From Vicugna vicugna (taxonomy: Eukaryota), in assembly GCA_013265495.1 (NCBI GenBank), contig MU057651.1:620001-684000 (forward strand): a stretch of DNA of 64,000 bases, read 5' to 3'. The notes beneath the pieces were generated by a model. It saw nothing but the letters and a program-made list of their open reading frames with translations, made no database searches and was not told where the DNA came from. A program made the position numbers and the translations under genes. How positions within the stretch are numbered: position 1 is the stretch's first letter; the number at the start of each line of letters is the position of its first letter. Positions 11,035 through 62,930 of the stretch are shown here, piece by piece.

Positions 11035-12246
11035 CTGAAAAATGAAGATAAAGATATTACAAAAAGATTGCCTCATTTAGAGACCATGCTTAAAAAAACT
11101 GCATGTGTTTGATCAGAAAGACATTTTCCAATTCAGTATTAAATAGATACTATGACAAATGACATAGTTTTTCTTAAAATAGCTCACACTCTTACATCAT
11201 TGCCATATTCTCACCACCCCATCTTATAGATCTTAATGAAGGCCTCCAGTGAATCTCATCTATACTGGGGAATGTTGAGGTTACTATTCCTGATTGGTAT
11301 GATTCTACACATTTATATCCAGAACTTCTCCCCGACTGCCTCCTTCCCTCTCCCCCTCTGTCACTCCTTTCCCTCTTCCCTTCTACCATTCCTTCCTTTC
11401 TTCTTCTCTTCCTCCCCTCCCCCTCTTATGCTATTAGTCTCAACACTAGAGCATCAAGAATATATGGTGAATTTCAGAATAAGCAATAACTCAGACACTG
11501 TTGAGTTCTAACATAGTTTTCAGGATTTCATCTTTGTAAACTGAGAGAATTTGACACATAAAAATAAAAGGGTTAAAAAAGCAGTGGCAACATGGAATAA
11601 AGAATAAATTTTGAAAATCTGCCTCTAGTAAAACCAATGTCAAGAGGTGGGGACTCTTTATAGCTGGGGCACTAATGATAGTATTCTCTTCTTTCTTTAA
11701 ATGTAAAACAACAAATTGTTTTAGAGAGGCGACCCAGATCATCTTTTTCAAATTGCAAAAATTTTGTCTGGTGTGTTTTTTTCAGGTGCTTATAGTGGAA
11801 ATTTGAACATCAAAGCTTCAAACAAAGGCTGGGTCTACATGCTAGCAAATGAAATCGAGATTTGGCAGGAACATGGCCATTTCTGTCTCTTATAAATACC
11901 AGGACATGATTTCTTTTTTTTAAGTCTGATTTTGAGGTCTGATCAAAATAACCTGGCAACCACAAAATTTGTGCTGTGTCATCATGGGGCAATTCAGTGA
12001 CTCTAAGGCAATATAATAAATTTCAAGAGAACATGGTTTGATCCAGACATCTCTTACTTCATGAACACATTACAAGGCCTGATCCTAAGTGACTGAGTGT
12101 CTTCACACCAGTGAAGAGACAAAACAACAATTGTGACTGCTGACTCAAACTGACAACTACTGCTTCACTGAACAATTTCCTTATTTGAGTTCTAAAATCA
12201 CCCAAGTGCTGTAAATCTCCTAAGATCAACTTCAACTTCCAACTCA

Positions 12247-12618
<372 letters not shown>

Positions 12619-23199: not shown

Positions 23200-25953
23200 T
23201 TTGTCTAAGATCAGTACTTCTGCACTTGCCTACACACCCCTGTCTTTTGAGGTTACTGCCACTTTGTTCTCCTGGTCAAGTTCCCTAATCCACTGAGGAC
23301 TTTGGCTCCCAGTATTCCTTCCTACACTCAATGCTGCCATCTCTCTGTGAAATGTGATATACAAATGGACACCTCTTTCACACCCTTTCCTTGTACCTCC
23401 TTGACCTCTCTCAACTCTAATGGACTTCATCTACCTTCCACTTCTTCAATCCACTCCGATGGCCACCATTAAACCAGTGGTTCTCAACCAGGGCTGCTCA
23501 TCAGAAGAACATGTACAGTTTCATAAAAATCCCAACATCCTGGGCCTACCCAGAACCTACTATATCAGGATCTCTGAGGGTGAGACATGGGAAATGATTT
23601 TTTTAAGCGCCATAGATGATGTGCAGACAGAGTGGAGAACCACAGCTACCCTAGGACTTTTCATTATCCAGAACGACCTTTTCTCTGAAATAGTCTCTGA
23701 AATAGCCCTGTTATCTCTTAACAAAGGCCCAGCCCCCCATCCCACTAGTTCTCTCACTCTTTCAAGTCCTTAATTCCTATTTTACTTGTTCTTTGATTTT
23801 GACAACACCTCCAATCCCTGGATCCCTCCATTTTTAGCCAATTTCTCATCTTCCACCTGGCCTAGACTGCATGGTTCATCATTTAAACTGCTCTTAAGCC
23901 ACTGCCCTGGAAACTATGCTCTTTTGGCCTCCTCTTGCAATTCTCCTACATAATCCTTATCCTGACAGAATCCAACCATCCATGAAAACTCCACTTCCAT
24001 ACTGAGGCTGCTGAAAGTTTTGGGGGGAAAATTCACAGAGCCATGCAGATGGGTGCTGACTATACAGGTCATGGACATCAATGGGTCATCAGTAGTGCTG
24101 GGTAATAATCTTCTTGCTCCTTGCCGACTTCATTTCCCACCTCTCTTACTGAATATTCTAGAATTTCACCACTTTGCTCAAACTTCTGCTCCTCTTCTCC
24201 CTTACTTTTAGTCAGAAATCCCTTCTACTTCACTGAGAAAAATGAAGGCCATCAGTTTGGAACTCCTTTGATTCCACTTTCTCTCCCACTCTTATGAATT
24301 TATCTCCATCAGTAACATCTTCCCCCTTCACATCACATCTTATTGGAAACAGTGTCTGTCCTCCTGCCTAAAGTTTATCCCTTCACTGATGCTCTAGATC
24401 CCTGTCCCTCTAAATTCTCCAAAGGATTCTCACTCCATCAATTACCTCCTATTTCTTCTTGTATCTCCAATCTCTCCCTCTCTATGGACACTTCCTATTT
24501 GGCTTAAAAAAACATGCTGAGTTCTCTTTTTTCCTTGAAAATTCAAACTCTCTGCTACCTCTCATCCTTCTTTAGCTGCTAGAGTCTCTCAACCTTTCCT
24601 TCTGTAGCTTAAACTTCTTGAGAAGGCAATCTAGGCTTCCTTAACCCTTACTCTTCAAACCACTGCAATGAGTCTCTGAGGTCACCAACTGATCTCCTTT
24701 AATATGGCCTTTTTTCAGTCCTCAGAACCCTTGACCTCTCAAATGTCAAAGCTGACATTGCTGAGTCATGAAAGTCCTGACCTCATGAAACTAACTCCTC
24801 CCCACCTTCTTTCCTGGAGTCTGTTCCTCCATTTCTAGGTTTTCTGTAGACTCTCTAGTCTTCCCTGGGAGCTGTCCTAGGTCCTCATCTCTTCTCATCA
24901 ACACAACTCTCTTTTAGGTCACCTCATCTACTTGTATGGTTTCAATTACTATCTACCTTCGTGATCTCCGGCCCTGACCTCTCTGCTGTACCCTGACCCC
25001 ATGGAGTTAATTGCCCACTGAATACCTCTATTTGGGTGCCTCACAAGCTCCTCACTCTAAATATTTTCAAAAGAAAACTAATTCTCTACTGCCTTTCCCT
25101 ATCTAAAATAAGAAACTACAGTCCTCTTGTGTTCCCTACCTCACCTTCCTCTAGCTTCTCCTGTCACTATCCGATTTGTTGCCTAGTTCTACTAATTCTT
25201 CCTCCTAAATATTCCCTCTGCATTTTCTCTCCTAGTCTTACTAATACTAGTCCTTAGGCTAGGTCCTTTCTCACTTGCATGACTCCAACAGCCTGACTCG
25301 CCCTCTTTCATCCTCCCCTACCCCGCCCACAGCCATTCTTCTCCTTTGGCTAGAGTGGTATTTTGAAACGCAAATCTGATATTATTCCCCAGCTTCAACA
25401 TTTCCTCCTTGCCTCCAGAATCATATTCAAAGCCCTTAGCATGGCATATATAAGCCCTCCAGACACCTATCCCCAATTACTGCCGCAGATCTGTCTCCCA
25501 CTTCTCTCCCACTCACGCTCGATGCACTAGCTCTGCTGAACTACTTGTAGTTACAGTCAGAGAACCTCAACCAGTAGTGTGTCATGCCTGCTGCCCTCAT
25601 AATGCTGCTCCTTCTATATGGGATGCCACCCAGCTCTTACATAGCTGGCTCTATTCCTTCTTTAAGACTCACCTCAGTTCAGTGGTCACATCCTCCAGGA
25701 AGCCTTCCCTAACTGCCCCTCCCCTCAATCTTGAATAGATGCCTTCAGTGCCCCCTTCTCGATTGTACTTAGCATGCTAAACTCTGCTCATTGACTAACT
25801 TGTCTGTGTCCCTTACTAGGCCATCAATCAGTTCCTAAAAGGCAGGAACTGGGACTTATTCACCTCTGTACCCCAACATCTATCTAGCACAGTACCTGAT
25901 TCAATAAATATTGAATGAATAAGCAAATGAACAAATGAATGGATGAATGAATG
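23200..25953 (+). mobile_element. Long degraded L2 LINE interrupted by a MER5-like MITE (~23475-23645)
   Basis: ~2.7 kb of L2 ORF2-like C/T-rich sequence (ctcatctacttgtatggtttcaattac near the YADD region) ending in tagcacagtacctg...aataaatattgaatgaat(gaat)n. Confidence 0.7.
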
Positions 25954-30689: not shown

Positions 30690-33044
30690 GCAATACAATA
30701 ACAAAACTATATGACATTATTAAGACTTTTTTCACACAGATGAACACACTCATGCAGAGCCTCAACTTTCTAAAGTAAGTAATGTGCAGGCTAGTAAAGT
30801 ACACCCACCTAACCCACCAAATGAGAATCTAACCCACTCAACACCCAAATCAAATATTAGCACATCCCTATTGTCAAGAATATTTTCTCACCATCATTTT
30901 TTTGCAAAAAAAAAAATGAAAAAAAGTTTTCTTTCCCTTTGAGTGGCAATAGAAAAGTCCTCTTTTCTGAAATTCAGATATGTTTCAAAGCTCACTAACA
31001 TCCTTTTAAGGAAAAGTGAAAGCCACTGCTGGCTTCTGGATGCTAGGAACATAGTTTACCACATATCCCTTTGTCTCATTGCTAATGTACAAGTATAGCG
31101 ATTGGCGCCCCAGAGACCTGGGAGATTTCTGGCTTCTATTGTTTGCTATGTGACCCTAGGCTGTCTGCTTAAACGCTTTGTGCTTAAATCGCCTCATCTG
31201 TAAAAAGGGGATAATACAGAGTAGTTGTAAGGATTGAGAGACTCAATACATGAAAAGTACCTGTCACACAGCTTGGCACGTAGGAACTAATTAGTAAACG
31301 ACAGATCACTTCCTATGCATCTTGATTTGACTGATCCAACTATCGCCTTGTACTCCTCCAGGAAGAGGGGCCTTCACTTCATTTCCAGGCTCACCAGCTC
31401 CCAAATCTCTGTACATTTTCCACAAACAAAATGCACATGAACTGTGCTCTCTGAAGACACGACCCTTCACACAGCATCACGCGTCCCCTGAAACACACCT
31501 AATGCTCTAATGCAGCACAAGACACAAGATGCAGAAGCACACTTCAGAAGACACAGACGTCACACAGAACATGCCACCGCCAAGTGCAGCCTCACCTGCT
31601 TCTTTCCCACATATGCTTCTAAGCTTCAGGTCCTTAACCTTGATTATTTTTAGAGGTACCACGCCATTTCCACAGTCCTGGCTGATTTGTCTGTCTCATT
31701 GCCTTTGCCTTATTGTTTTATTTATTCACGTATTTTTTCATGTATTTATTTCTTCATCCATGTATTCATTTTCTACCTTGCTCCAAAATGGATATAAGGC
31801 AGCTCCCAAGAATACGCAAAATACGATGTGACAGCAGCAGAAATTCAAAGTAGATAAAGTGAAAGGGAAAACAAAACAAAACAAAGATAGGCACACAAAA
31901 TGGAGTGGAGCCTAGAAGAAAGCTCATACAAGGTGTGCACACACCGCAGTCCCACTACAAGTGCTATACGTGGGCCAAACGCTTGGCGCCAAGCTTTCTA
32001 ATATCCAACAGAAGAGAAACCTGATCAGTCTCACACGTCACAGGGTCCATAAAATAAAATCAAACCACGTGTTCAGAATGTCCTTTTCCTGGTCTAAATT
32101 CTGTAAATTTTTATATGGTGACGCATCATAAGACAGTGGCAAATTGTCCCTCTGACTTTGCTCTAACACCAAGATTCAGTTCCCAGAACCGCTTCCAACA
32201 AAGACAGATCCTCAATCTGGAAATTACGTTTACTACTTCTTTCTCTTCTACCTATCTCTTGAAGTTCCATTTGGTCAATGAAATGTGGCTATTAAAGAGA
32301 CCCCTTAAAACAAACAAAAAACTCGGCTGTCACCAAAGCAAGCATTTTCATTTAACTAAAGAAATAGACAACATGACATTATTTATGACAAAAATTTGAA
32401 TAGGATCCCAAATAACTGACCAAATAAATGGTTAAATCAACCATGATGCCACTATATGATGAAATATGATATACCATCAAAAATGATATTTATGAACGCT
32501 TTTTTAAAATGTAGGAAAATGTTCACTGAGTTTTTGAAAAAGCAGGATATAAAACTGTATATATTATGATTTTAACTATGTTAAAAAGCATACATATATA
32601 TATATAGCCATAAAGAAGTCTGGAAAGAAAGCCATTAAAATATTAACATTGTTTCTGAGATTTGTGAATATGGGTGCTTTTTATCTTTTCTATATGCTTG
32701 TCTTTATTTTCCAAGTTTTTTATATCGATGAACAATTTCTATATGATGAGAAGAACTGGGGGAAAAAATACCAACCCAGCTACTTATCTTTGGCTTGTGA
32801 AATTATGGACAATTTTAATTACCTTTTTAAAATGTTCTATAACTGACATACAGATTTTAGTTAGGGCCAAAGTTACTTTAAAACAGAAATGGGAATTCTA
32901 AAATCTAGTTTTTTTAGTTGTTTGTTTGTAAGTTCCACAATGACAAATGTAGTAACACCTCACGACTATTCAGCACTTTTTAATTTTACTTTTAATAGCA
33001 CTCTATTTAGAATTACATTGGATTAGCAACAATATTTTTGCTAG

Positions 33045-33190
33045 GTAGGCCAGGTCTGATTATCTTCATTTAACAGGTGATGAAACTGAGGATCAGAGAA
33101 ACTAAGTGATTAGCCCAAAGTCACAAAAATCTGGCAGAGCTGGACTTCAACCCAGGTCTCCAGAACCCAAGTCCAGTGCTCTTTCCATTC
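33045..33190 (-). mobile_element. MIR SINE
   Basis: acaggtgatgaaactgagg.tcagaga...aagtgattagcccaaagtcaca...aacccaggtct. Confidence 0.7.
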
Positions 33191-33719
33191 ATTCAAGACT
33201 GATTGTGGTATAACCCAGAGAGGGTTATAATCACCAAGATGTAAAAACACAGAGATAGTAACCCTTCCTTACCTATGAAGGTCAAGTTCCTGAATGACCC
33301 CCACCCAAGTAGGAGAGTTCAGCTGAGGAAATTATTATTTTAGGAGGTAAAAAAGGGGCAGAGAAACTGAGGTCACATATGAACCTTTGAAAGCCCTCAT
33401 AAATATTTGTTTGTGCAGTAAAACAAAACAATGATGGTACATTACAGAAAACAATAATGAGAGTTGACATAGCTTAAATCAGTAAAAGTGACAGGCTCTA
33501 TATACTTTCCATTTAGATCTTGAGATGACTTCCAGAGGTGATGAGAATGCACCACTTATTATGCCAATGGAAAATGGGGGTGACAGGGAAGCAATGAAGA
33601 GAGGTGGACTGTTAGTTCAAATCATGGATCTTCTTGCTCTCAGAGTCTTAACCTAAGTCCAATCCTGAGATTATAATAACTTACTTGGGGCTTTAGCCCT
33701 GTCAAGCAAGCGAATTTGA

Positions 33720-35778
33720 GTGGCATGACTTAATGACTTTGGCTCCTCTGAAGATGCTTTCTGTCTTCTCAAGTCTGTTCTGAAGACACCTTAGCACTCC
33801 TGTATCGAGCTCAAATTAAATCATGCAAATCTGTCTGAAGGCAGCTTATCTGCTGCCTGGCACATATTCAAATGGCACTACTCAATGATTTAGGCTCTTC
33901 TGAGGTTGCTGTCTTCTGAACATGGTGATGTGAAAAGACTCTTTGCACCTCTTTATAGAGTTCAATTAAATCATTCAAGCTTTGTCTGAAAGCAGCTTAG
34001 CTCTCCAGCAATGGTATTTAATGGCACTACCCAATTTAAGTTCTGCTGAAGATGGCCTCTCTCCAATGTGATTTGTTTTGAAGGCATCATAGCACCTCTT
34101 TATGGAATTCTGCTAAATAACTCAAGCTTTGAACAGGTACGATTTGACACGTAATAGTACCGAATTTCTTCATTACTTTCTTGGGGAGGTTTTAATCTCA
34201 TCCTAAAAGATTTTCTCCAGTTGCTTATAACTGTATTCATCTCCAGTGTCACAGCTTCCTAATTATTTTCATCATCACTTATGATAATCACCTCTGGGGT
34301 CCCAGGAGTTTCCTGGCAGTCATCCTCTAGCACATCACATCACCGGAATCAGCATCAACAGGTTCTGATTCAACTTCAGCCAGTGATTGCTCCTGAGCCA
34401 AATGTTCATCCTCAACCATAGGTGGTTCTTGATCCAAAGAGTCTATCTTCAGGAAAAATCACTGACAGATATTTCACCCTCTCCAGCCAAATCTCCAAGG
34501 TCACATTAACAAAAGGCTCTGTTAAGATATCTAATGCCTCTTTCATTAAGAATACAGCATTAGAGTTAAGATATGCCTCTTTCATTAAGAATACAGCATT
34601 AGTGATGGTGTAGGAATCCCATGCACTAAGATCTTCAGGCAGAGGAATCTTTGTGAGATTCTCAAGAACAACATTATACATTAGTTTGGCTGAAGTCTTC
34701 TTGAATGGCCAGTTCAAACACTGATCTAAGGGCTCAAGAATCCGAAACGTGCAGCTGGTTATAAAGACAAACTTAACATTAAGCCTAACATTTACCCATT
34801 GGCAAATGTATCTGAGGCACCAAATGGACAGTGAAGAATCAATAGGACTTTGAATTCAAGATATTTTGAAGCAGTCCCGAATTTCCACAAGAAAGCACTC
34901 TTCAAACCCTTCCTTAAGGAGAGAAGGAGTCTTTCTGTTTGCATGCCAGCATACTGGAAACTAAGCTCAGTTTTTTCCTTGGAGATTTTGGGCATACTTT
35001 TCTGCAGAGCAGTATTGATTTCACTATGAGGTCACCTGGAGTATTGGCAAAAAACCAGAAATGGCAGCCTCTCTGTTTTGGCTGACCTCACGTCAGCATC
35101 GGTTGGTTCCTGCTCTTCTAAGAGGCAAGTAGGATTGTTCAAGGCTTTCAAAGCATGGTGGTCTCAACAGCATCTAAGATTAGTGTAGAAATATGGTCCT
35201 TCTCTTCAGTCATTTTCTGCAGTTGTGGCAGATACAACACAGGAGTTGCAGGATCTAGTGGCTCCTTCTTTGATACCACTGTCACATAAGACTTGGTCTC
35301 CAAGTCATGGTGCACCATAAATTTCTCAAACCATCCCTTGCTCCTGGCAAAATTTTCTTTGGAACCCACTTTGGTGTCTGAAAACATGTCTTTGAAAATT
35401 CTGTGATCACATGTCCCTTGCATGGAAAGTGTTTTCTTATTTCCTTTGCTTGTTTTCAGTCCAGAGGTTTAACATCATTTCCATCTTCTCCATCCTTGGG
35501 TCATGAGGGATCAAGCATCTCTAAGGTGATGCAGGTGTACAAGAGGTGATACTGGCCCTAATAAGAGTTTCAGCTTTCCTTATGGTACAAACTCACTAAT
35601 ACCATATAAGTAACCTACAAAGCTATTTGTTTTACCTTGAAGAAGCAGATCAAAACTGTCCCTTTTCTCTTCCAAAGACATCACCCTTCTTGCCATTTTG
35701 GCAACTTTCTCTGGTGCCAGAGTCCTTGTTCTTGGTTTCACTCTCTTCCACTGCAACGGTCACGTTTATAGAAGCCAT
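33720..35778 (-). pseudogene. Decayed pogo/Tigger (CENP-B/TIGD-like) transposase reading frame with extended repetitive C-terminus
   Basis: Ordered motifs across frameshifts and stops: MARRVMSLEEK..YGISE (HTH_psq-like), MEKMEMMLNLW and FARSKGWFEKF (CENP-B HTH), LILDAVET, KVLLILHC, LEPLDQCLNWPFK, WDSYTITNAV (DDE_1-like). Confidence 0.85.
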
Positions 35779-36466
35779 GTTTAAGCTTTATGCTTATTCA
35801 TGCAACCTGACAATTACTTACTAGAGATTTTATATTCCCCCAGTGTTACAGAGTGTCAGCATGTGATATTTAAGGACCAAATGGTATTATGCACAACACA
35901 AGGATAAATGATAATATACTGTTGTGATACTCAGTGCAAAAAGGGCTGGTTGTGTAGGGGACGACTGGCAGAAAAACAGGAGAGGAAACAAATGAGTCAG
36001 AAGTTTCTTTCCACCTTGCGATATAGTCAGAGAGACAACAGCGTGGCACTTGGACTGACTCCCGTATACTCAATTCAAAATTTTCATGGTTGTCAAAAGT
36101 GTATACAGAAGTAAATTCACCTATACTCAAATATCTAATAAGGACAACTTACAGTTAGAAAAGGATGACTATAAATTCTCCTTTAACTTATGAGAATGAA
36201 AGTCACTATTTATATACTTAAGACGGTACTGTTGCTATGATTTCCCCTGGCTTAATGCTATGAATTCAATTTTATGGGAAAAGCAAATATAGCATAAGTG
36301 TATCTTCTGCAAACCCACAGTAAGTCAATCAAACATTACCCTCTGACAAAATGCAACCTCTGAAGATGCAGATGAAAAAGGTCAGGCAGGCCCTGAACAT
36401 CCAACACTCAAGAAATGACTACTCAAGAAAGAAAGAGACAAGGAAAGAATCAACTAGCCCCTTTCA

Positions 36467-36670
<204 letters not shown>

Positions 36671-38819
36671 TTACAACTGACTGCACAGCTCCTAAAGAGG
36701 AGGAGAAAACAGAAGTTAGGAGAGGGCTAAAAAAAAACAATCTATAAGAGTCTAATATCTTCAAAACAAAAGCCTGGGTCTCATGTTGTCTTAGGTTTTG
36801 TGTTGACCGTTTTGAGGGGTTTCTTTTCTAGAAAGAATGGAGCTGCCTCCTTAAAGACCAGTGGTGCAATTTCGCAGAGGAAAGCGTGGGCAATAATTAA
36901 TGGCTTTTCAATATGTAACCACAAGTACCTAAAGTCCCTTCCTTTTCTCACAATGAAATTCTATTTTCTATGGTCCACTCACAGTCTTTTAATGAACAAT
37001 TGACAATCGTTCTTCTCTAAACATTCTATCCTGATGATCATCACGGTCAGGTAGCACCACCTCCTTGAAGTCTTCAGTTGACACAGGCCTGACTGTTGAT
37101 TTTGAGTGACCCACAACAATGACGTGTTAGTCGCTTTGACACTGGGATGACTTTGGCATCTGATTCTCACCTGTGTGGACCCGATTGCTAAAACACACTC
37201 TTATTGTTTTATGAGGAGGAACTGAGAAACAATCTCATAAACCTGGTAGTTTCAGCAGAGTTGGGGTGAACTGCTAGGGGAAACAATGCCCCACCTTCAA
37301 GAAGCAGGTAGAAGATAAAGCAAAGCCAAATGTCACCAGGAGCAAAGAGGCGCTCTAACGAGAAGATCACTTCCAGAGGCGACATCAAAACCTTACTCCT
37401 TGTCATATTTTATGCCCTGGAACAGGAAACAAGGGAGCTGACAGGGATAACAGGGCTATAAGAACCAATCTGGGTTTTAGCAACTTATCTGCTCTTCATT
37501 TTATCATTCTTTAGTATCTTGTGTTCGGGATGAATACATTCAGGTTTCATCCCACTGGAGGGTAAAGTGAACTAGAAAAGCACTGACTCCCCAGGGATCT
37601 GTTTCTGTTTCCAGCTGTTCTCCCACTAGAATGCAAGTCCTGCCAGTCAGGGTCTGACACTTGCCATCAGAAGTCAGGTGTTAAGAGAACCTTCCAAGTG
37701 AATCTCCAGTTTGAATACAAGCAGAAGCAAATACCACTGCAACAAAATCTCTAATTTCATCAAGTATCAACTGGCACTAATTTAGGAGTATAAGAGCTCT
37801 CCAAACACAACTTGGCCTATCACTGTATCCCAATAACATTTACTATAAACAAGCCTAAGTACAACAACAAAAACAGAGGTCTCCCGGTTACCTGCTACAG
37901 TGAGAAATAATCTATCATAATTTTCAGCCCTTTAGTGGTTACAACGTGTTTATTATTTTCAGTAATGAATTCTAAGTTCCATTATGTCATGTGGAGACTT
38001 TTTGTAAAAACTGCATACTATGTTTCAAATTTTCCCCAGTGTACAGAGCCTGCAAGTATTCAAGAATAAATAGGTGAGTAGCAATTGATAGTTTCTCCAT
38101 CTGCACAGGTGACTGCCAATTAACAATGACTGGCTTAACCTTGATTTGGACAAGTTATCTTTTCCTTTGCCTGTCTTATGCCTTGCATTATCTTAATGAA
38201 TTAAGATCAATTTTGTACCTTTTTCAGGAATCATGACAGTGAAAATGTTCAGTCATAAGTATTTTGGCAACACCACCAACAACTTAAGTCTCACGTTTTC
38301 CTATATGGGTGAAGCTATAGCAAAAGGTAACATGAAAAAGCAACTGTGATGTCAAGGATCAAGTATATTCACAGATACTTCTGGTAAATATTTTAACCAG
38401 CATATAAAACCAGCCCTAATGTGTCTATATTCTCTTTTGCATTTTGATTTTGGTCCTTCTAAATTCATTCTTTCTCCAGAAGAAAACAGAATTTAAGACT
38501 GACTTCAACAGTGGTATTCTCTATCAAACAGGTTCATTTTTTTAGTTAGAATTATTATAGTTTGACTGCACATACACATTATATTGCATGTAAATACGTA
38601 TATACAGTATATTGCACATTTTTTAGTTTACATATATGTACTAATTATTGTTTCTAAGAACAGATTAGATCTTTAGCTTTTAAACTTACATAGGAATAAA
38701 GGAATAAAGTACAAAATAAGAATCAACAGAATGCGGTAATCTAGTCATAAAGGACAGTCAAATGTGCTTACACATATTCAAGAAATCAAAATAATAATTA
38801 GTTCATTTATGTCATTATT

Positions 38820-56166: not shown

Positions 56167-56314
56167 CTCACACCGCCACCGCTGCAGGACCTCAGCACAG
56201 GTGGGTGCTGCCCATGAGAAGGGGCCGGGCTGCCTTCAGCTCCGATGGACTCAGTGCTAGGCACACCAGCTGCCACAAGATGCAAGGACTCAGCTGCCTT
56301 TTCTTGGGGGAAAC
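56167..56314 (-). other. PAK3: Probable PAK3 non-coding 5'UTR exon (148 nt)
   Basis: Acceptor atgcttctctcggcag|GTTT and donor GAG|gtgagt enclose a GC-richer unique segment between the promoter and first coding exon. PAK3 is known to have several 5'UTR exons. Confidence 0.7.
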
Positions 56315-59300
56315 CTGCCGAGAGAAGCATTGTGGGGGAGCAGGAACCTCTTTCCCTACCTGCTATTGCTCCCTCGTCCAACCCCCCAAACATCACACAC
56401 ACACACACTACAGTGAGTCTCAGAAACTCCCTTAAGAAGACAGAGAATCATAGTCGAGAGGTGAAAAAAAAAAGCCTTGGTATGTAGGAGTCCAGAAAAG
56501 GCAGTGAACTGGGAGTTTCAAGTTGAGAACTGCTGTCACTTCACCACTCTGGATCTGCTTGCTAGCGAGTGGAAAAGACCTGCCGTAGTCACCTTGGACA
56601 AGTGTTGGGAGCACCAATATTACAGATGTGAAGTATCTGCATATTCACAGCAGATGGTACAGTCCAGTGAACAATAGGAAACTGCAAGATGATGGCAAAG
56701 GCAGGTTTGGCTCTGAGGATACCTGAGCTTCCTGAAGACCCCGCTGTTCAGTTTATGTCATCCCTCAACTCCAAGTCTCCACCACCATTTCCATTTCCTT
56801 TTTCAACAGCTTCCTTCACTGGGTTGGTGGGCAGGGTAGGGGGAGCATTTTGAGGTTCCCTAATTTGCTATCATCTCACAGCTGCTGAGGGCCTCTGAGC
56901 CTAATCTCCACCACAGGGATGTCTTCCATACTCTTTCCTAGATTTCTTTGGGTGAATACATCCTGGGGTTTTAGAGGGTTACAATTTACCCTGTCTTCCC
57001 CCAAAGAGGGTTCCATGGCCAACTATGACAGAGACAGGGCTTCTTTACCGCTCCCCGCCTTTCTGCCTTTCCCCACAATCGCTTGAGCCTCTCAAGGAGA
57101 CTGATATTCCCTTGATAGGACCCCAAGCTCTGAAATCCTTCCTAACCTTCCCCCTCTTTTCTCCATGGTGTTTGTCCTCGAAGAGCAGCACCTCTGTGCT
57201 AACTTCTAATAGAACCAGATCCAGGCTAGCACACATTCTATTAGAGGATTCCAGAATGCACAATGTCCTGATCCAAAGACATGGATGGACGGTTGGATAT
57301 CTAAAGATGGAGACAGTAAAACTGAAGCCTCAGGGAGCCAAGAAAAGCCCCATTATTCCCAATTTTCCCCCTTGAATAAAAAGACCAAGCCTTACCCCAG
57401 GTCTGCCAGTTGCTGCTGGCAAGCCTCCAGAGCACGTCTGTCCCCCAGCGGCCCTGGCATTCCCTGTGAGCTTCCCACGTGCACACTCCGAGGAGCCTTT
57501 CCAAATTCTACCCACTGCGCCGCTGAGCGGTGTGCCCACCCCCTCTCCCGCTGCATGAGCTCATCCTGCCAGGGCGTGGGGTAGGGGTAAGGGAGGGAGG
57601 GCTGCCAAAGCTCCAGAGAGGGGTGGGACTCGGAGAGGGCTCAAGAAGAAGGACTATAGAAAGTCCCCTGCCCGTCCCCAGGTAGGGAGGAACACTACAG
57701 GGACTCAGAGGGGGGAAAGGGGGACAAGTGCACCAACTGGTACTAACCAAGCACCAACAGGTCTCTGTGCAAGATCAAGAGCTTTCCTTAGGGCTACCTC
57801 CACCTTCCCTCGGCCGCTTAATAACTCCATGGCAGCCTGCTTGGAACCCACAGGTTGGGCAGCTGGAGCCAGTGCACGTGCAAATAGCAGGACACGGAGC
57901 TCCACCTGGTGGCCACACTCCTCTCACCTGTCTGCGGGTATGCTGTGTCGGAAGTGGGGGGGGTGCGTCCTGTGCATGAGTACATACGGGGTCAGATATA
58001 TCTGAGCTGCATCCTGCACCACTTTGTATTTGTGTGCCTGTACCAGGACGTGTGTGTGTGTGCGTACGTGCAGTGTTTATATCGCTCTGTGTATGTGACC
58101 TTGCCAGTGCCATCTTGTGCACGTGCTGTGGGTCTGCACTGTGCTGCATGTGCATTGTATCCATTCTGCGCTATGGAGTGCCTGTGCCTACCCTATAGCA
58201 TGTGTCCTATGTCTATGCCACATTGTGTATCTGCATCTTGTTGGGTGTCTATGCTGCCTTGTGCGTACACTGTGGTCTAACCTCCTGCTGGAGGCTGGGC
58301 TAGAGATATGCGCACTCATCAAGTGCCTACCAGCACCACGCCTTGCTGCGTTCCAGCTTCCTGCTGGCATCTTGTCTGGGGATTAGGGCTGCCACCTTTT
58401 TGGTGGGGCAGGGAAGCTGTAGACAAACACTCTCTCTCTTCCAGGGCCCTCCCATGGCAAGTGCCTGGACCAGCACTGAAGATAGGTGGGAACGTTCTGG
58501 AACCCTTTTCAGGCCCAAAGAAGGAAACTGGGCACTAGGGGCATGGCTCCCTCTCTCAACTCCCAGCGCCAACTACGTGTGAAATGGGCCTGCAGGAAGC
58601 TGCTGCCGCCTGAGTTTCTCCTTCAGGCCAGTTGGAAGGACTAGAGCCCTTCTCCACAGGGAGTAACAGTTGCACAGGGGGTGAAGCACTGGCTCCGGAG
58701 CTGGGCCCCAGGGACATATGGAGAGCTCTGCCAAAGGTGTTCTCATTGAGGTCACTAGAGGGCGCGATTGTGCTGAATGTTAGGGGTAGAGTCTCTTGAG
58801 AGTGCAGAATTCCAAAAAGTCTGCCTGGCTCAGAAAGAGAGAGAGGGGTGAGAAAGATAGGGAAAGGATGCACACCCTAAGCCAGGCCCTTCCTTCACCC
58901 TCACCCCAAGCCCTTCTGTTCTGAGACTGAGCTAGGGAGTCAGGGCCACTAATGTGTAGCTGCTCCCCTCACCCCCACGATGTAAGATCTGTACCAGATC
59001 CCCCACAGAGCTTTGCACGAGCTTGGTTATAGGGGCAGATTCTCCACTCGGGCATCTCTTCCCCTCCTGCTCCCACTCACATGAATAAAAGTAAGGCTGC
59101 ACTGCTGAGAGAGATGAAATGTGTGTAGTGGTTGTGTGTTCGTTGCCTGTCTTCCCTTCAACTGGAGAGCATACCAAAAAGCGTGATGTAGAAGGAGTAA
59201 ATGGAGTGGGGGGAATCATTGCCAAGAACAAATGGACCCACTTCCTAAAATGTCACCACCACCTTAGAAACCACCTAGTCCAACCTCATCATTTGAAAGA

Positions 59301-62089
59301 CAAGGAAACTGAGGCCCAGAAAGGGATAGAAACACTCAGACCCAAACCCCTGACTTCTGACTCCCAAGGTTGGTTCCACCCCAGCTCCTGGTCCTCTAGT
59401 CCATAAAAGACTTCCTTCTCCAAATCCAGCACCTTCCCACCCCAGGGCAAAACCACGGCCTCCACCTCCCCTGGGTGGACTCCAAGACCATCCTATTCCA
59501 TCTCAGTGACCAGGCGCGCCCAGGCCTTTCCGTGATTTCCACTCCCCACCAAGAAACCGTTCATCTCTTTCCAGTCTTCAAGGTCCATTTCCCCCATCTT
59601 GCATCCCGCTCGCAGACCCAGCTGTGGCTAAGCCATTTTGCCCCTGCTCACAATCCCCTGGCAGCACAGATTGCCCCAACCTGCAGATAATTGACCGGTT
59701 GTGCAAATCAGACAGGGATCCATCTTATTGATTAACATTTCCAATTAAACTCCGTGTTAGGCTGTATGAGAGACTCCAGCAATCACCGCGGGCGTAAATG
59801 CAAATTCCTTCCAAAGTTGCAGAGCGCGGTAGGAAGCGACACCTTTCTGGGAGGAAACGGAAACAGACTGCCAGAGCCGAGGGTTCATTTGGTTCTCTGG
59901 TACCTCTAAATCCGATTTGAAAAGTACGGCTGTTAACTTGATGGAGGCTCAGACTTCACCCCTGAAATGGAGGACCCTGGCCCCGCGCTGCTGCGTGCTC
60001 TCTCCCGCCCCCTGCTGGAGAAGCCGTGTAGTGCCGAGCTAGCCGGCGAGTCCACCCCAGGCCCTGTAGAGGGAACCACCTAGACTCTGGCAGGCAGTGG
60101 GGATGCTGGGGGACAACAGGACATCTGAAGCTTAAGCTGCACCCTAAATGCCTCAGAAACTTCACTTACCTTCTAGGGCAGTGGTTTTCGCCACCCCTGG
60201 TCAGCTCGGGGTCCCATGGGCCCCTGGGAAAGAGGGCTTCCTTTTTTGAGTACAAGCAGATACCTCCACACTGGCAGCTGGGGCCCTAGACTGGGCCCAG
60301 ACCCACCCCATATAGAAGTAGTCAACCTACCTGTCTCCACCAGATTTGAAGCTCCCCAAGTCCCCTTTGGGGCCCTGGCCCCCTACTCACTTCTTACTCA
60401 GGAGGAAGAGCCAGTGTTGAGGCTGTAGCTCATTGAGTTTCTTTTCCTTCCTGTGACCAAAGCTACTGGTGCCTGAAGATGGGTTACATGGGTGCGAACA
60501 CTACTATAGATTCTTCAACTACGGAGAAGTTGTCCCCCTAAGTCTGGGCTGAGCCACAGGTGCCTTAACCACCAAAATTTCTCCCATCTCACCAAGGAAA
60601 TCAGGGCCTTTGGGCTCCTGGTAAAATGATGTCTCTCTCTTCTTGTCTCTCCCTCCCTCTCTCTATGGATTTGTTCCTACCTACTCTATCTGATTCTTAG
60701 ATCCGATTTTTTTTGCCTTGGCTATCAACTTTGAACTCATAGTAGCTTAGTCTCTGACCTCGTACTAACAGGGTCTCTGATGAGGGCAGCACCTCCCCAT
60801 CCCCGCAGTGATTCCTCATTTCCCTCTCCTGTCATGCCCATCCACTCCCTTCCCCCCAAAGACCTCAGCAAGCTTGTTTGCTCTGTATTCAATTTCTGCC
60901 CCCAACTAGAAGATCTGCAACCTGTGGGAATGGACAGCTAGTTGGCATGTCCTTAGTTAGGGTGTTGTTGCTTGCACCCCTATCACAGGCAAACCTCCTT
61001 TTCCTGTTAGGTGTCTTGCCTTGTAGGCAAGGCCCACTTGCCTGCCTGGAGGCTTGGAGGGTTTGCTCCCTGACATCCCAAGGTCCCCCTGGCCTTGACT
61101 CGCAGCTGTTGGCTTTTTCTCAGCATACATCCTGGTCTCTTGCCATTTTGCTTCTTCCATGGGGGAGCAGGGTAGGATATTTGTATCCAGAAACAAGCTT
61201 ACATGGCTCTATCCAAGCCGGGGCTTGTTAATCATCCATGACCCTATTAAGCCCCTTTGCCCAAAGGTGTCCCTGATTGTCAGAAGCCTCTGACACATCA
61301 CAGACCTGCCCAATTTATAATTTTGCTGATGGCCCAGTGAAAACCGCACTGACCTTTATACCTCGGTCATCCCAGAACAGGGCCACAGTGCTGTCACCAA
61401 CAGGAATGGACCTCCTTCTGTTCCAACACCTCAGACAGCCATACAGTTGGCCTGGATTTGAGTCTGCAAAACCATGGGGGGAGCAAGACTAACATGGCTA
61501 AAGGCTTCCCTGTTGAAAGCCATTTTTTAAAAATAGCACTGCAACCGCCCCCTTCATGCCTCCCAAAGCCAAGCCACTCATCCTGCTCTCCTTCATCTCT
61601 ACAGACCACAGCCTGGAACCCTCAAGTCCAGAGTCTGGCCTTGGACTCTGGAAGGTGGGACCGAAAAAACAAGTGGGGCCTCTGGCTCCCTCCCTGCGGG
61701 CACCGCCCTCCCACAGCTCCCCACCCCACCCCTCAACCACCACCTAGGGAAGGAAAACCTGCAGAGAACAAGAATCTAAAATGGTCAATCCGTCCGAAAC
61801 TGTGGCAGGAATCTTGCCAGAGCCAGTTCACAATCTGAGGGCAAGGTCCCCCTGCAAGCTGAGGGGGACAGGGAAGGGGGGCAGTGGACCTTATGACCCT
61901 GCTCCCCAGACAAAGACGACGGCCAACTGAGGGACCCCGGGCTTTCTAAGGACATTATTGCATCATTCCAGTCCCCACAGAGGAAGAAAAGAGTCCTCCT
62001 GTCATGGTCCTCCCACCACCAAAAAAGGGGAGGGGGATAAAGAAAAATAAAAGGGGAAAGGCGCCCGTTTAAGAAAATCGTCACTTTTT

Positions 62090-62930
62090 CGGTTTGCTCT
62101 GATCGGACTGTGCCCCCTCCTCCGGACTTGCCGGGGCCGCGGCCACACCCCCTCCCCTTTGGATGGGGGAGCTGCCGGCGCTGCTACAGTGGCTGGGGGA
62201 GGGGGGGCGGGAAAACGGTATAAGACTTACAGGCTGACGTAGCTTTTGGGGCGGATTTTGCCTCAAGCGGCCCAGGCCCCGGTAAACGAGTCTAGGGCTT
62301 GACCCCTCCAAGGGGCCCAGGTCCTCCGGGAATGGCCCCGACACACCCACTTGTCCGCGTTTGCGAGCCGGGATCGTGCAAACTGTTCGCTGGCTGTCAG
62401 GGCTCCGGGGGAGCCACGGAGGGGACTCGAGGCCGGGACGCCGCGACATCCATAGGAGGGTCCGGGAAGGCAGAAAACCTGCCCAGCGGCCTAAAAGCAG
62501 AGCCCAGCGGCCACCCCCTCCCCAGAGCGAGCCAAATGCCATCCATCGCGGGATTTACCTGCCACTGGTCCAGCCACCCCGTCCAGACCTCTCCTCTCCC
62601 TCGGAGCGCTGGGGCTGGCTGGCGGGGCTGGGGAGCCGCAGCCCCGCGGCCGCGGCCGCAGCCCCGGGCCCGGCCCGCTCCCCACCCCACCCCCCCGGCT
62701 CTCCCCCCGGCCCCGCACACTCGCTCCGGGCCGGGGAAAGCCGCAGCCCCCTGCGCGAAACCCCAGACGGTCCGCTGCCCACAGCTGCCCGCCCGCGGTC
62801 GAGCCCTGCTCGGCAACCGCTCCCTCGCCCTGCTCCGCTATGACGTCACCCGGGCTCTGCACCGCACGGAGGCCAATCAGAGCGGGCGGAGAAAACTAAA
62901 ATCACCCTGAGTGGGCTACTGGGGACCAAT
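62090..62930 (-). promoter_or_regulatory. CpG island / PAK3 promoter with CRE, CCAAT boxes and GC box
   Basis: Dense CpG and high GC; TGACGTCA 62841-62848; CCAAT 62873-62877 and 62925-62929; GGGCGG 62884-62889; minus-strand donors CAG|gtaaat (exon edge 62559) and CCT|gtaagt (exon edge 62231) may end first exons. Confidence 0.8.

Follow-up and report, generated by a model that had tools for sequence, protein, structure and literature searches.

A probable unitary pseudogene of a Tigger-derived host gene nested in PAK3 of Vicugna vicugna

The Fossil Frame and Its Host Gene

The DNA analyzed here, hereafter called the window, is a stretch of 64,000 nucleotides (nt) of contig MU057651.1 of Vicugna vicugna, which carries on its minus strand exons of a group-I PAK gene (36691-36490, about 18169 for the PBD exon and about 2520 for the acidic exon). 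This host gene is presumably PAK3 and not PAK1 or PAK2. The subject of our work is a broken open reading frame (ORF) related to the transposases of Tigger elements, which lies in sense with PAK3 and 710 nt downstream of the donor of its first coding exon. The initial annotation of the window had described this fossil as nested in sense within a PAK3 intron; the minus-strand PAK exons bear out the orientation, but the fossil is situated inside an alternative terminal exon and not merely in an intron, as presented below. The features of the frame are the following, with residue numbers referring to P0028, one of its intact relatives elsewhere.

36490..36691, minus strand: PAK3 first coding exon; ATG at 36664, donor ...GATAAAA/GTAAAG in phase 1, translation ending in GGGDK
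34259..35778, minus strand: pseudogenised Tigger-derived ORF, from ATG 35778-35776 to the conserved stop TAG 34261-34259, with about 10 frameshifts and 3 premature stops
35551..35699, minus strand: CENP-B_N / psq-type helix-turn-helix (HTH) region (MSLEEKRD...YGISE), P0028 residues 27-78; custom profile E 0.012
35292..35484, minus strand: HTH_Tnp_Tc5 DNA-binding region (MEKMEMMLNLW ... FARSKGWFEKF), P0028 residues 101-166
34496..35073, minus strand: DDE_1 (RNase H-like) core, the entire catalytic region extending from about 35170

A frameshift-aware alignment of P0028 to the minus strand begins exactly at ATG 35778-35776 (context TTAAACATGGCT), the start codon that the initial annotation had proposed, and ends at 34262, immediately before TAG 34261-34259. 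It matches 486 codons at 69.3% identity, and the range obtained with P0028, P0030 and P0031, the three intact relatives, is 64-69% identity over 484-491 codons, in agreement with tblastn results. The order of domains previously read from the window, namely a psq-like HTH, a CENP-B-type HTH and DDE_1, is recovered both by mapping through the intact orthologues and by colinear profile matches. For the latter we used a custom profile of 10 pogo-derived ORFs that are intact in this genome (L014 being left out as a KRAB-type outlier), which matches five pieces of the window in colinear order, at profile positions 12-51, 84-103, 123-192, 256-288 and 315-386, with E values of 0.012, 0.07, 2.9e-6, 0.087 and 0.005, respectively. 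Pfam searches with seven open pieces of the window found pogo families in two of them, both below cut-off (HTH_Tnp_Tc5, E 0.075; DDE_1, E 0.04), together with three chance-level matches to unrelated families. The pogo genes of this genome match the locus weakly by tblastn (best E 1.3e-6 at 24.6% identity).

The intact DDxD triad of an active pogo/Tigger transposon is present neither in the window nor in the three orthologues with intact frames, which all share a V/I-H-D triad in place of D-D-D. In the window, the first catalytic position is Val (GTT 35168-35166, in 'AVET'), the second is His (CAC 34833-34831, in 'LLILHC') and the third retains Asp (GAT 34726-34724, in 'EPLDQC'). The initial annotation was thus right in considering two of the three catalytic Asp residues as substituted and EPLDQ as intact, although its register for the first Asp was off by a few residues.

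Intact Relatives Elsewhere

A phmmer search with a 147-aa piece of the frame against 1.84 billion representatives returned six matches, all ORF fragments of 48-190 aa, and no long relative; a word-index search with a 106-aa piece added six further fragments. Four long relatives, P0028, P0029, P0030 and P0031, surfaced only when a profile of the fragments covering the 106-aa region (A1) was searched against longer proteins, so that a verdict of 'no intact relative' based on phmmer alone would have been wrong. Three of these have intact frames (501 aa in P0028 and P0031, 510 aa in P0030) that are mutually 74-79% identical, while P0036 (501 aa) belongs to the same 90% cluster as P0028 and is 100% identical to it in alignment A4. 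The intact frames begin with MASVN/S.TL, the ORF in the window beginning with MASINVTV, and all end at the position of the window stop. A further search with an alignment of the long relatives (A3) retrieved eight proteins, that is the four long relatives plus four distant pogo proteins at 26-39% identity.

The fourth long relative, P0029 (KAG8510685.1, 397 aa), is a computational gene model, not a transcript, of the desman Galemys pyrenaicus, and is labelled in GenBank as 'Tigger transposable element-derived protein 1'. Its first 41 residues are identical to residues 18-58 of the translation of the PAK3 exon in the window and are then followed by the transposase frame, which places the gene at the same locus in the desman, as far as the gene model goes. 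About 135 residues of the DDE core are missing from this model. Intact frames are found in divergent species, the same locus being seen for Galemys only, through the PAK3 exon in its model. Given that P0028, P0030 and P0031 are known only from short Logan contigs, they might instead represent a related low-copy transposon of other animals, the window then holding a separate old insertion. We regard this possibility as very remote, since P0028 is 88% identical to the Galemys protein that carries the PAK3 exon, the dead triad is common to all these frames and to the window (a mobile family would not keep it), each frame is present on one or two contigs only and the start and stop positions are the same in all.

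The orthologues match DDE_1 with 91.9-96.4 bits (cut-off 22) and E values of about 1e-26 to 1e-27 (1.9e-27 for P0028). HTH_Tnp_Tc5 is recognized in P0028 (25.8 bits) and P0029 (23.9 bits; cut-off 22.2), and CENP-B_N in P0030 (23.6 bits; cut-off 21.2), the other three orthologues remaining below cut-off for this family. With the profile of alignment A4, the CENP-B entry 1hlv is found at E 2.1e-30. The structure that AlphaFold predicts for P0028, with a mean pLDDT (predicted local distance difference test) of 65, values of 70-94 in the domain cores and disordered termini, resembles the transposase domains of Mos1, Sleeping Beauty and Metnase as well as CENP-B(1-129). A metagenome scan for orthologue DNA gave 193 pattern matches, none of which was confirmed, and the protein atlas returned generic pogo clusters only. 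Five runs recorded as RNA, from two studies and containing 32-44% of the sampled words, and 15 further entries were found in the run index; they were given no weight because the stretch is intronic. The C-terminal sequence 'EVIIISDDENN', in which acidic residues come after a hydrophobic run as in a SUMO-interaction motif, was dropped as a defining feature, for this hydrophobic run is not kept in P0030 and P0031.

In bins of 30 residues, the fraction of columns identical in all three intact frames rises from 0.30 at the N-terminus to 0.77 in the first HTH, amounts to 0.50-0.67 along residues 61-180, reaches 0.77-0.97 along residues 181-450 (DDE) and falls to 0.33 in the C-terminal tail. This domain-wise conservation and the shared triad would be signs of selection on the intact frames. 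Scaling from the 13 breaks that the window copy has accumulated at 31% protein divergence from P0028, the probability of zero breaks at 21-26% divergence is of the order of 1e-4 to 2e-5, a rough figure that is not a test statistic. In a maximum-likelihood tree of 16 rows (built without P0029, P0034, P0035 and the broken Tigger copies L021-L040), P0028, P0030 and P0031 group together with 100/100 support; their stem measures 1.98 changes per site, and their tips 0.06-0.13. This clade is placed within a larger group, also with 100/100 support, that includes two pogo proteins as well as this genome's TIGD1-like and CENPBD1 genes.

A separate observation concerns window 35200-35300 (HDLETKSYVTVV.KKEPLDPA.PVLY), where about 30 residues are 73-82% conserved among decayed copies of different assemblies, versus 46-61% overall (by count in alignment A1); the fossil may enclose here an element conserved at the level of DNA.

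Copy Number and Terminal Repeats

DNA and protein searches of the 2.03-Gb assembly, conducted with the whole fossil, the 147-aa and 106-aa pieces, the tail and the upstream 672 nt, found matches only at the locus and at one other place, on contig C2026; with the two protein pieces, every other row had an E value of 0.13 or worse. The same tool is able to detect old repeats, as shown by the 38 short matches at 72-90% identity that it gave for the 1.1 kb just downstream. No terminal inverted repeats (TIRs) above chance were found between the flanks, the best score being 23 compared with 23.6 +/- 2.2 in 60 shuffles, which matches the earlier failure to recognize any. The combination of TIRs, TA duplication and multiple copies that marks an active pogo/Tigger transposon is thus missing. 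The initial annotation had named a multicopy consensus with TIRs, combined with the lack of an open frame in any mammal, as the outcome that would contradict a host gene, and our results depart from it.

Downstream of the stop codon lies a repeated tail.

33688..34140, minus strand: three direct repeats of about 150 nt each, downstream of the stop in the 3' untranslated region (UTR); mean column identity 77%, genome-unique apart from the copy on C2026

The triplicated tail described in the initial annotation does exist, but it is 3' UTR and not protein: being situated beyond the conserved stop, the repeats are noncoding. Their reading as a protein domain was rejected, because all intact frames end before them, at the position of the window TAG. 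A search of window 32000-37000 against Rfam gave no match.

A Short PAK3 Isoform Recorded by a Retrocopy

The second place of homology, G000:C2026:8015231-8019707 (loci L002, L042 and L046), is a processed copy of a short PAK3 isoform. Its homology to the fossil region is confined to window 32642-36693 (96.4% identity with gaps) and the region of the PBD exon is not duplicated, while upstream in C2026 there are three short blocks matching window 56167-56316 (100%), 61352-61467 (97%) and 62559-62790 (87%). The retrocopy joins these three upstream PAK3 exons, at canonical splice sites, to the contiguous segment 36691-32652; it retains only a short A run at its end and sits between the two copies, differing by one mismatch, of a 14-15-nt target-site duplication, in what we take to be a MIR repeat. 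The possibility that the second copy is a haplotig or a segmental duplication was rejected, since homology is limited to 4 kb and a set of spliced exons, without a second copy of the PBD exon region. The processed structure implies that a spliced RNA existed, transcribed from the PAK3 promoter and composed of three 5' UTR exons followed by a terminal exon of 4 kb with its end near 32652; it thereby documents that the transposon was used, under control of the host promoter, as an alternative 3'-terminal exon. The exons of this transcript are listed here.

62559..62790, minus strand: PAK3 first (5' UTR) exon; 87% match to C2026 8019498-8019707, GT donor after 62559, 5' end of the retrocopy near 62790
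61354..61463, minus strand: PAK3 5' UTR exon, spliced in the retrocopy; 97% match to C2026 8019386-8019501, canonical splice sites
56167..56314, minus strand: PAK3 5' UTR exon, spliced in the retrocopy; 100% match to C2026 8019240-8019389, AG/GT flanks
32652..36691, minus strand: 4-kb alternative terminal exon, from the acceptor of the first coding exon through its donor, the whole fossil and the tail repeats; contiguous in the retrocopy

Parent and retrocopy differ at 96 sites and by 5 indels over about 4.05 kb, that is by 2.4%, which suggests an age of very roughly 5-12 million years at usual mammalian rates. When the donor of the first coding exon is skipped, as in this transcript, the PAK3 frame runs on downstream to 36466 and comprises 58 residues plus eight more before a stop (66 codons in total). 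Upstream of the end of the terminal exon near 32652 are found the hexamers AATAAA (32708-32703) and GATAAA (32685-32680), the latter being a known variant of the poly(A) signal.

Three side observations can be added. The 66-residue peptide of the short isoform would hold an N-terminal proline-rich stretch. In window 62790-62900, the 5' end of the retrocopy indicates where transcription began, about 60 nt downstream of the motif TGACGTCA, similar to a cAMP response element (CRE), in a GC-rich stretch. Finally, old interspersed repeats (38 short matches elsewhere, 72-90% identity) are situated at window 33052-33187 and 32597-32733; both hexamers come from the second of these, which overlaps the terminal exon at its 3' end.

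The retrocopy also bears on the nature of the product, for the functional protein may have been not a free-standing ORF but a fusion in which splicing joins PAK3 residues 1-58, in frame, to the Tigger ORF through an acceptor located just within it, in the manner of CSB-PGBD3, SETMAR and KRABINER. The acceptor would be the following.

35751..35752, minus strand: AG inside ORF codon 10 (GTTGCAG/TG), phase 1; candidate splice acceptor, predicted to be in frame with the PAK3 exon

The phase of this AG equals that of the PAK3 donor, so that the join would be in frame, and in the Galemys model P0029 the two parts are joined in this way, one codon after the position of the window AG; moreover, the element is in sense, intronic and endowed with its own 3' end, and in most fusions of this kind the acceptor lies just 5' of the transposase ORF, according to the main text of Cosby et al. 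(2020, bioRxiv 10.1101/2020.05.07.082677). However, an AG in the right frame has about a one-in-three chance by phase alone and the Galemys junction is a prediction, whereas in the retrocopy, which is the one actual record of a transcript, no intron has been removed between the PAK3 exon and the ORF. Furthermore, the window and all three intact frames retain the ATG and the first residues of the ORF (MASVN.TL), although these could drift freely if they were intronic. We thus consider a fused product as possible but rather doubtful.

Decay of the Window Copy

The frameshift-aware alignment locates about 10 frameshifts, near 35733, 35591, 35442, 35153, 35055, 34988, 34873, 34797, 34444 and 34332, and three in-frame stops, at 35523, 34969 and 34963, beside several in-frame codon indels and one duplication.

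34534..34602, minus strand: in-frame 39-nt tandem duplication (exact 30-nt repeat with 39-nt spacing), in the parental copy only and not in the retrocopy

This genome consequently has no intact frame, and the gene is a pseudogene in it. As many as 12 of the 13 breaks are common to the window copy and its retrocopy, from which it follows that the gene was dead well before retroposition. ORF fragments of other assemblies cover eight of the 13 breaks and read through every one of these eight, the remaining five being uncovered; the breaks of the window are, judging from this comparison, derived. Such fragments are also nearer to P0028 than to the window copy (63% versus 55-57% for P0009, 64% versus 44% for P0002), and these identities would fit a slowly changing intact gene accompanied by several independently decaying copies. 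ORF L019 of this assembly and a RefSeq protein of Vicugna pacos named CENPBD1 / TIGD1 are the same letter for letter, and the loss thus concerns a camelid-like lineage. Between parent and retrocopy, the changes in aligned codons number 15, 8 and 11 at the three codon positions; 11 of them are synonymous and 23 non-synonymous, a pattern that neutral DNA would be expected to show. The present sequence of the fossil evolves neutrally.

This neutral evolution, the many breaks and the weak Pfam scores of the window pieces would all be compatible with an ordinary dead Tigger insertion never used by its host, the long frames found elsewhere being slow to decay or open by chance. Such an explanation appears highly improbable to us, because it has to accommodate three frames of 501-510 codons that remain open at 21-26% mutual divergence, a conservation that tracks the domains, the absence of a copy family in this genome and the lack of detectable TIRs. 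It is more conceivable, yet still unlikely, that the relic matters here at the RNA level, with the terminal exon defining a regulated intronic-polyadenylation isoform that limits full-length PAK3 or yields the 66-residue peptide. The retrocopy does prove a spliced RNA from the PAK3 promoter that ends near 32652 with both GATAAA and AATAAA upstream; it nevertheless shows existence and not function or abundance, and the fossil itself evolves neutrally.

Origin and Fate of the Gene

From the evidence presented above, we consider it likely that the window contains a unitary pseudogene of a Tigger-derived host gene that was nested in PAK3, was transcribed from the PAK3 promoter and is intact in few mammals. 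The proposal of the initial annotation that a once-functional, TIGD-like host gene is now broken in this genome is thus supported by the single locus with its retrocopy, the lack of TIRs, the intact orthologues, the shared dead triad and the domain-wise conservation.

Several points weigh against this interpretation. P0028, P0030 and P0031 derive from short contigs of 3.5-5.9 kb, and synteny with PAK3 is seen for the Galemys model only; the latter, without part of its DDE core, may come from a copy that is itself damaged or misassembled. The long orthologues are four among billions of proteins and may all belong to one mammalian order. The Poisson estimate for open frames is rough and uses the window's own decay as its yardstick. 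Finally, the sole transcript record is a retrocopy, which reflects past RNA, and biochemical function is assigned by analogy only.

The history of a host gene at this locus may be envisaged as follows. A transposon of the Tigger family (pogo superfamily) would have inserted, in sense, in the intron after the PAK3 first coding exon of an early placental ancestor. Its transposase would have lost two of the three catalytic Asp residues, giving the V/I-H-D triad, together with the terminal repeats, while both HTH domains and the RNase H-like fold would have been kept. The ORF would have been transcribed from the PAK3 promoter within an alternative 3'-terminal exon, which for this genome is shown by the retrocopy. 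The gene would still be intact in a few mammals but would have decayed long ago in the present lineage, its remnant being a transcribed relic in the PAK3 short isoform that would code only for PAK3 residues 1-58 plus eight. If CENP-B, JRK and the TIGD proteins are a guide, the protein would most likely have been a non-cutting, sequence-specific DNA-binding or chromatin adaptor.

A broader and more speculative extension, to which we attach limited confidence, is that placentals possessed a further pogo-derived gene behind the PAK3 first coding exon, where the PAK3 promoter captured the Tigger element, maybe with alternative splicing to a PAK3(1-58)::transposase fusion; it would survive in a few lineages (the desman and others) and would have been lost independently many times, the present genome being one such case. 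If this were true, PAK3, a kinase gene of the brain, would over tens of millions of years have housed a nested partner gene for a DNA-binding protein. With few mammals keeping it intact and many having a dead copy, such a gene constitutes a natural experiment on the gain and loss of domesticated transposases, and is easily overlooked by catalogues built from human or RefSeq genes. The retrocopy acts as a fossil transcript, revealing without RNA data the promoter and the exons that carried the transposase frame, and it renders transposase capture by alternative splicing testable at the PAK3 locus.

Comparison with Known Pogo-Derived Genes and Transposase Fusions

The order of domains in the PAK3-nested gene, CENP-B_N, HTH_Tnp_Tc5 and DDE_1, is the same as in CENPBD1 and TIGD1, which fall in the same clade with 100/100 support. 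Among the intact genes of this genome, L020 and L019 come nearest, with 31% identity, followed by L012, a TIGD1-like gene, with 29%. The gene differs from these relatives by its position within PAK3, its V/I-H-D triad and its own long branch (stem of 1.98); the low identity of 29-31% and this branch indicate an independent domestication and not a paralogue of CENPBD1 or TIGD1. We accordingly rejected the identification as a TIGD1/CENPBD1 orthologue that the GenBank label of P0029 implies, given such identities and the separate 100/100 clade, and regard that label as an automatic name. For annotation purposes, the 'TIGD1' label on the desman protein is thus misleading, and the PAK3 short isoform should not be considered as coding past residue 66. 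CENPBD1 itself is, according to the survey of Gao et al. (2020, PMC7386202), a patchy, lineage-restricted gene whose triad is conserved in part.

The main text of the same survey catalogues 12 pogo-derived vertebrate genes, all of them outside PAK3, and does not contain the word 'PAK3' (Gao et al. 2020, PMC7386202), and the main text describing transposase capture by alternative splicing contains neither 'PAK3' nor 'Tigger' nor 'pogo' (Cosby et al. 2020, bioRxiv 10.1101/2020.05.07.082677). Our literature search for a link between PAK3 and Tigger or a domesticated transposase found nothing relevant, the supplementary tables of these two studies being places where the locus may be listed. Being absent from the 12-gene catalogue, the gene would be a new pogo-derived gene, unless it appears in a supplementary table.

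With CSB-PGBD3 (in ERCC6), SETMAR and KRABINER, the PAK3 locus shares a transposon in sense within a host intron, an alternative 3'-terminal exon with its own 3' end and the use of the host promoter, as well as a phase-matched AG at the start of the ORF that is in line with the mechanism described in the main text of Cosby et al. (2020). However, piggyBac or mariner elements are involved in those cases, whereas a Tigger element is involved at PAK3. Moreover, those fusions are shown by RNA and protein, while the PAK3 fusion is a gene model in another species, and the host part would be the 58-residue N-terminus of a kinase instead of a KRAB, SET or helicase domain. The likeness to CENP-B extends to the derivation from pogo, the two N-terminal HTH domains, the dead DDE fold and the acidic C-terminal region. 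Nevertheless, identity with CENP-B is 24% over a local alignment of 297 residues, the two belong to different clades and CENP-B is universal in mammals, whereas the PAK3-nested gene survives in few.

Of note, the contig that carries L020 (G000:C10179) contains two intact DDE_1 frames, at 11802-12341 and 24029-24577, which are 12 kb apart and are relatives of L019; they may represent a local duplication of a domesticated Tigger gene.

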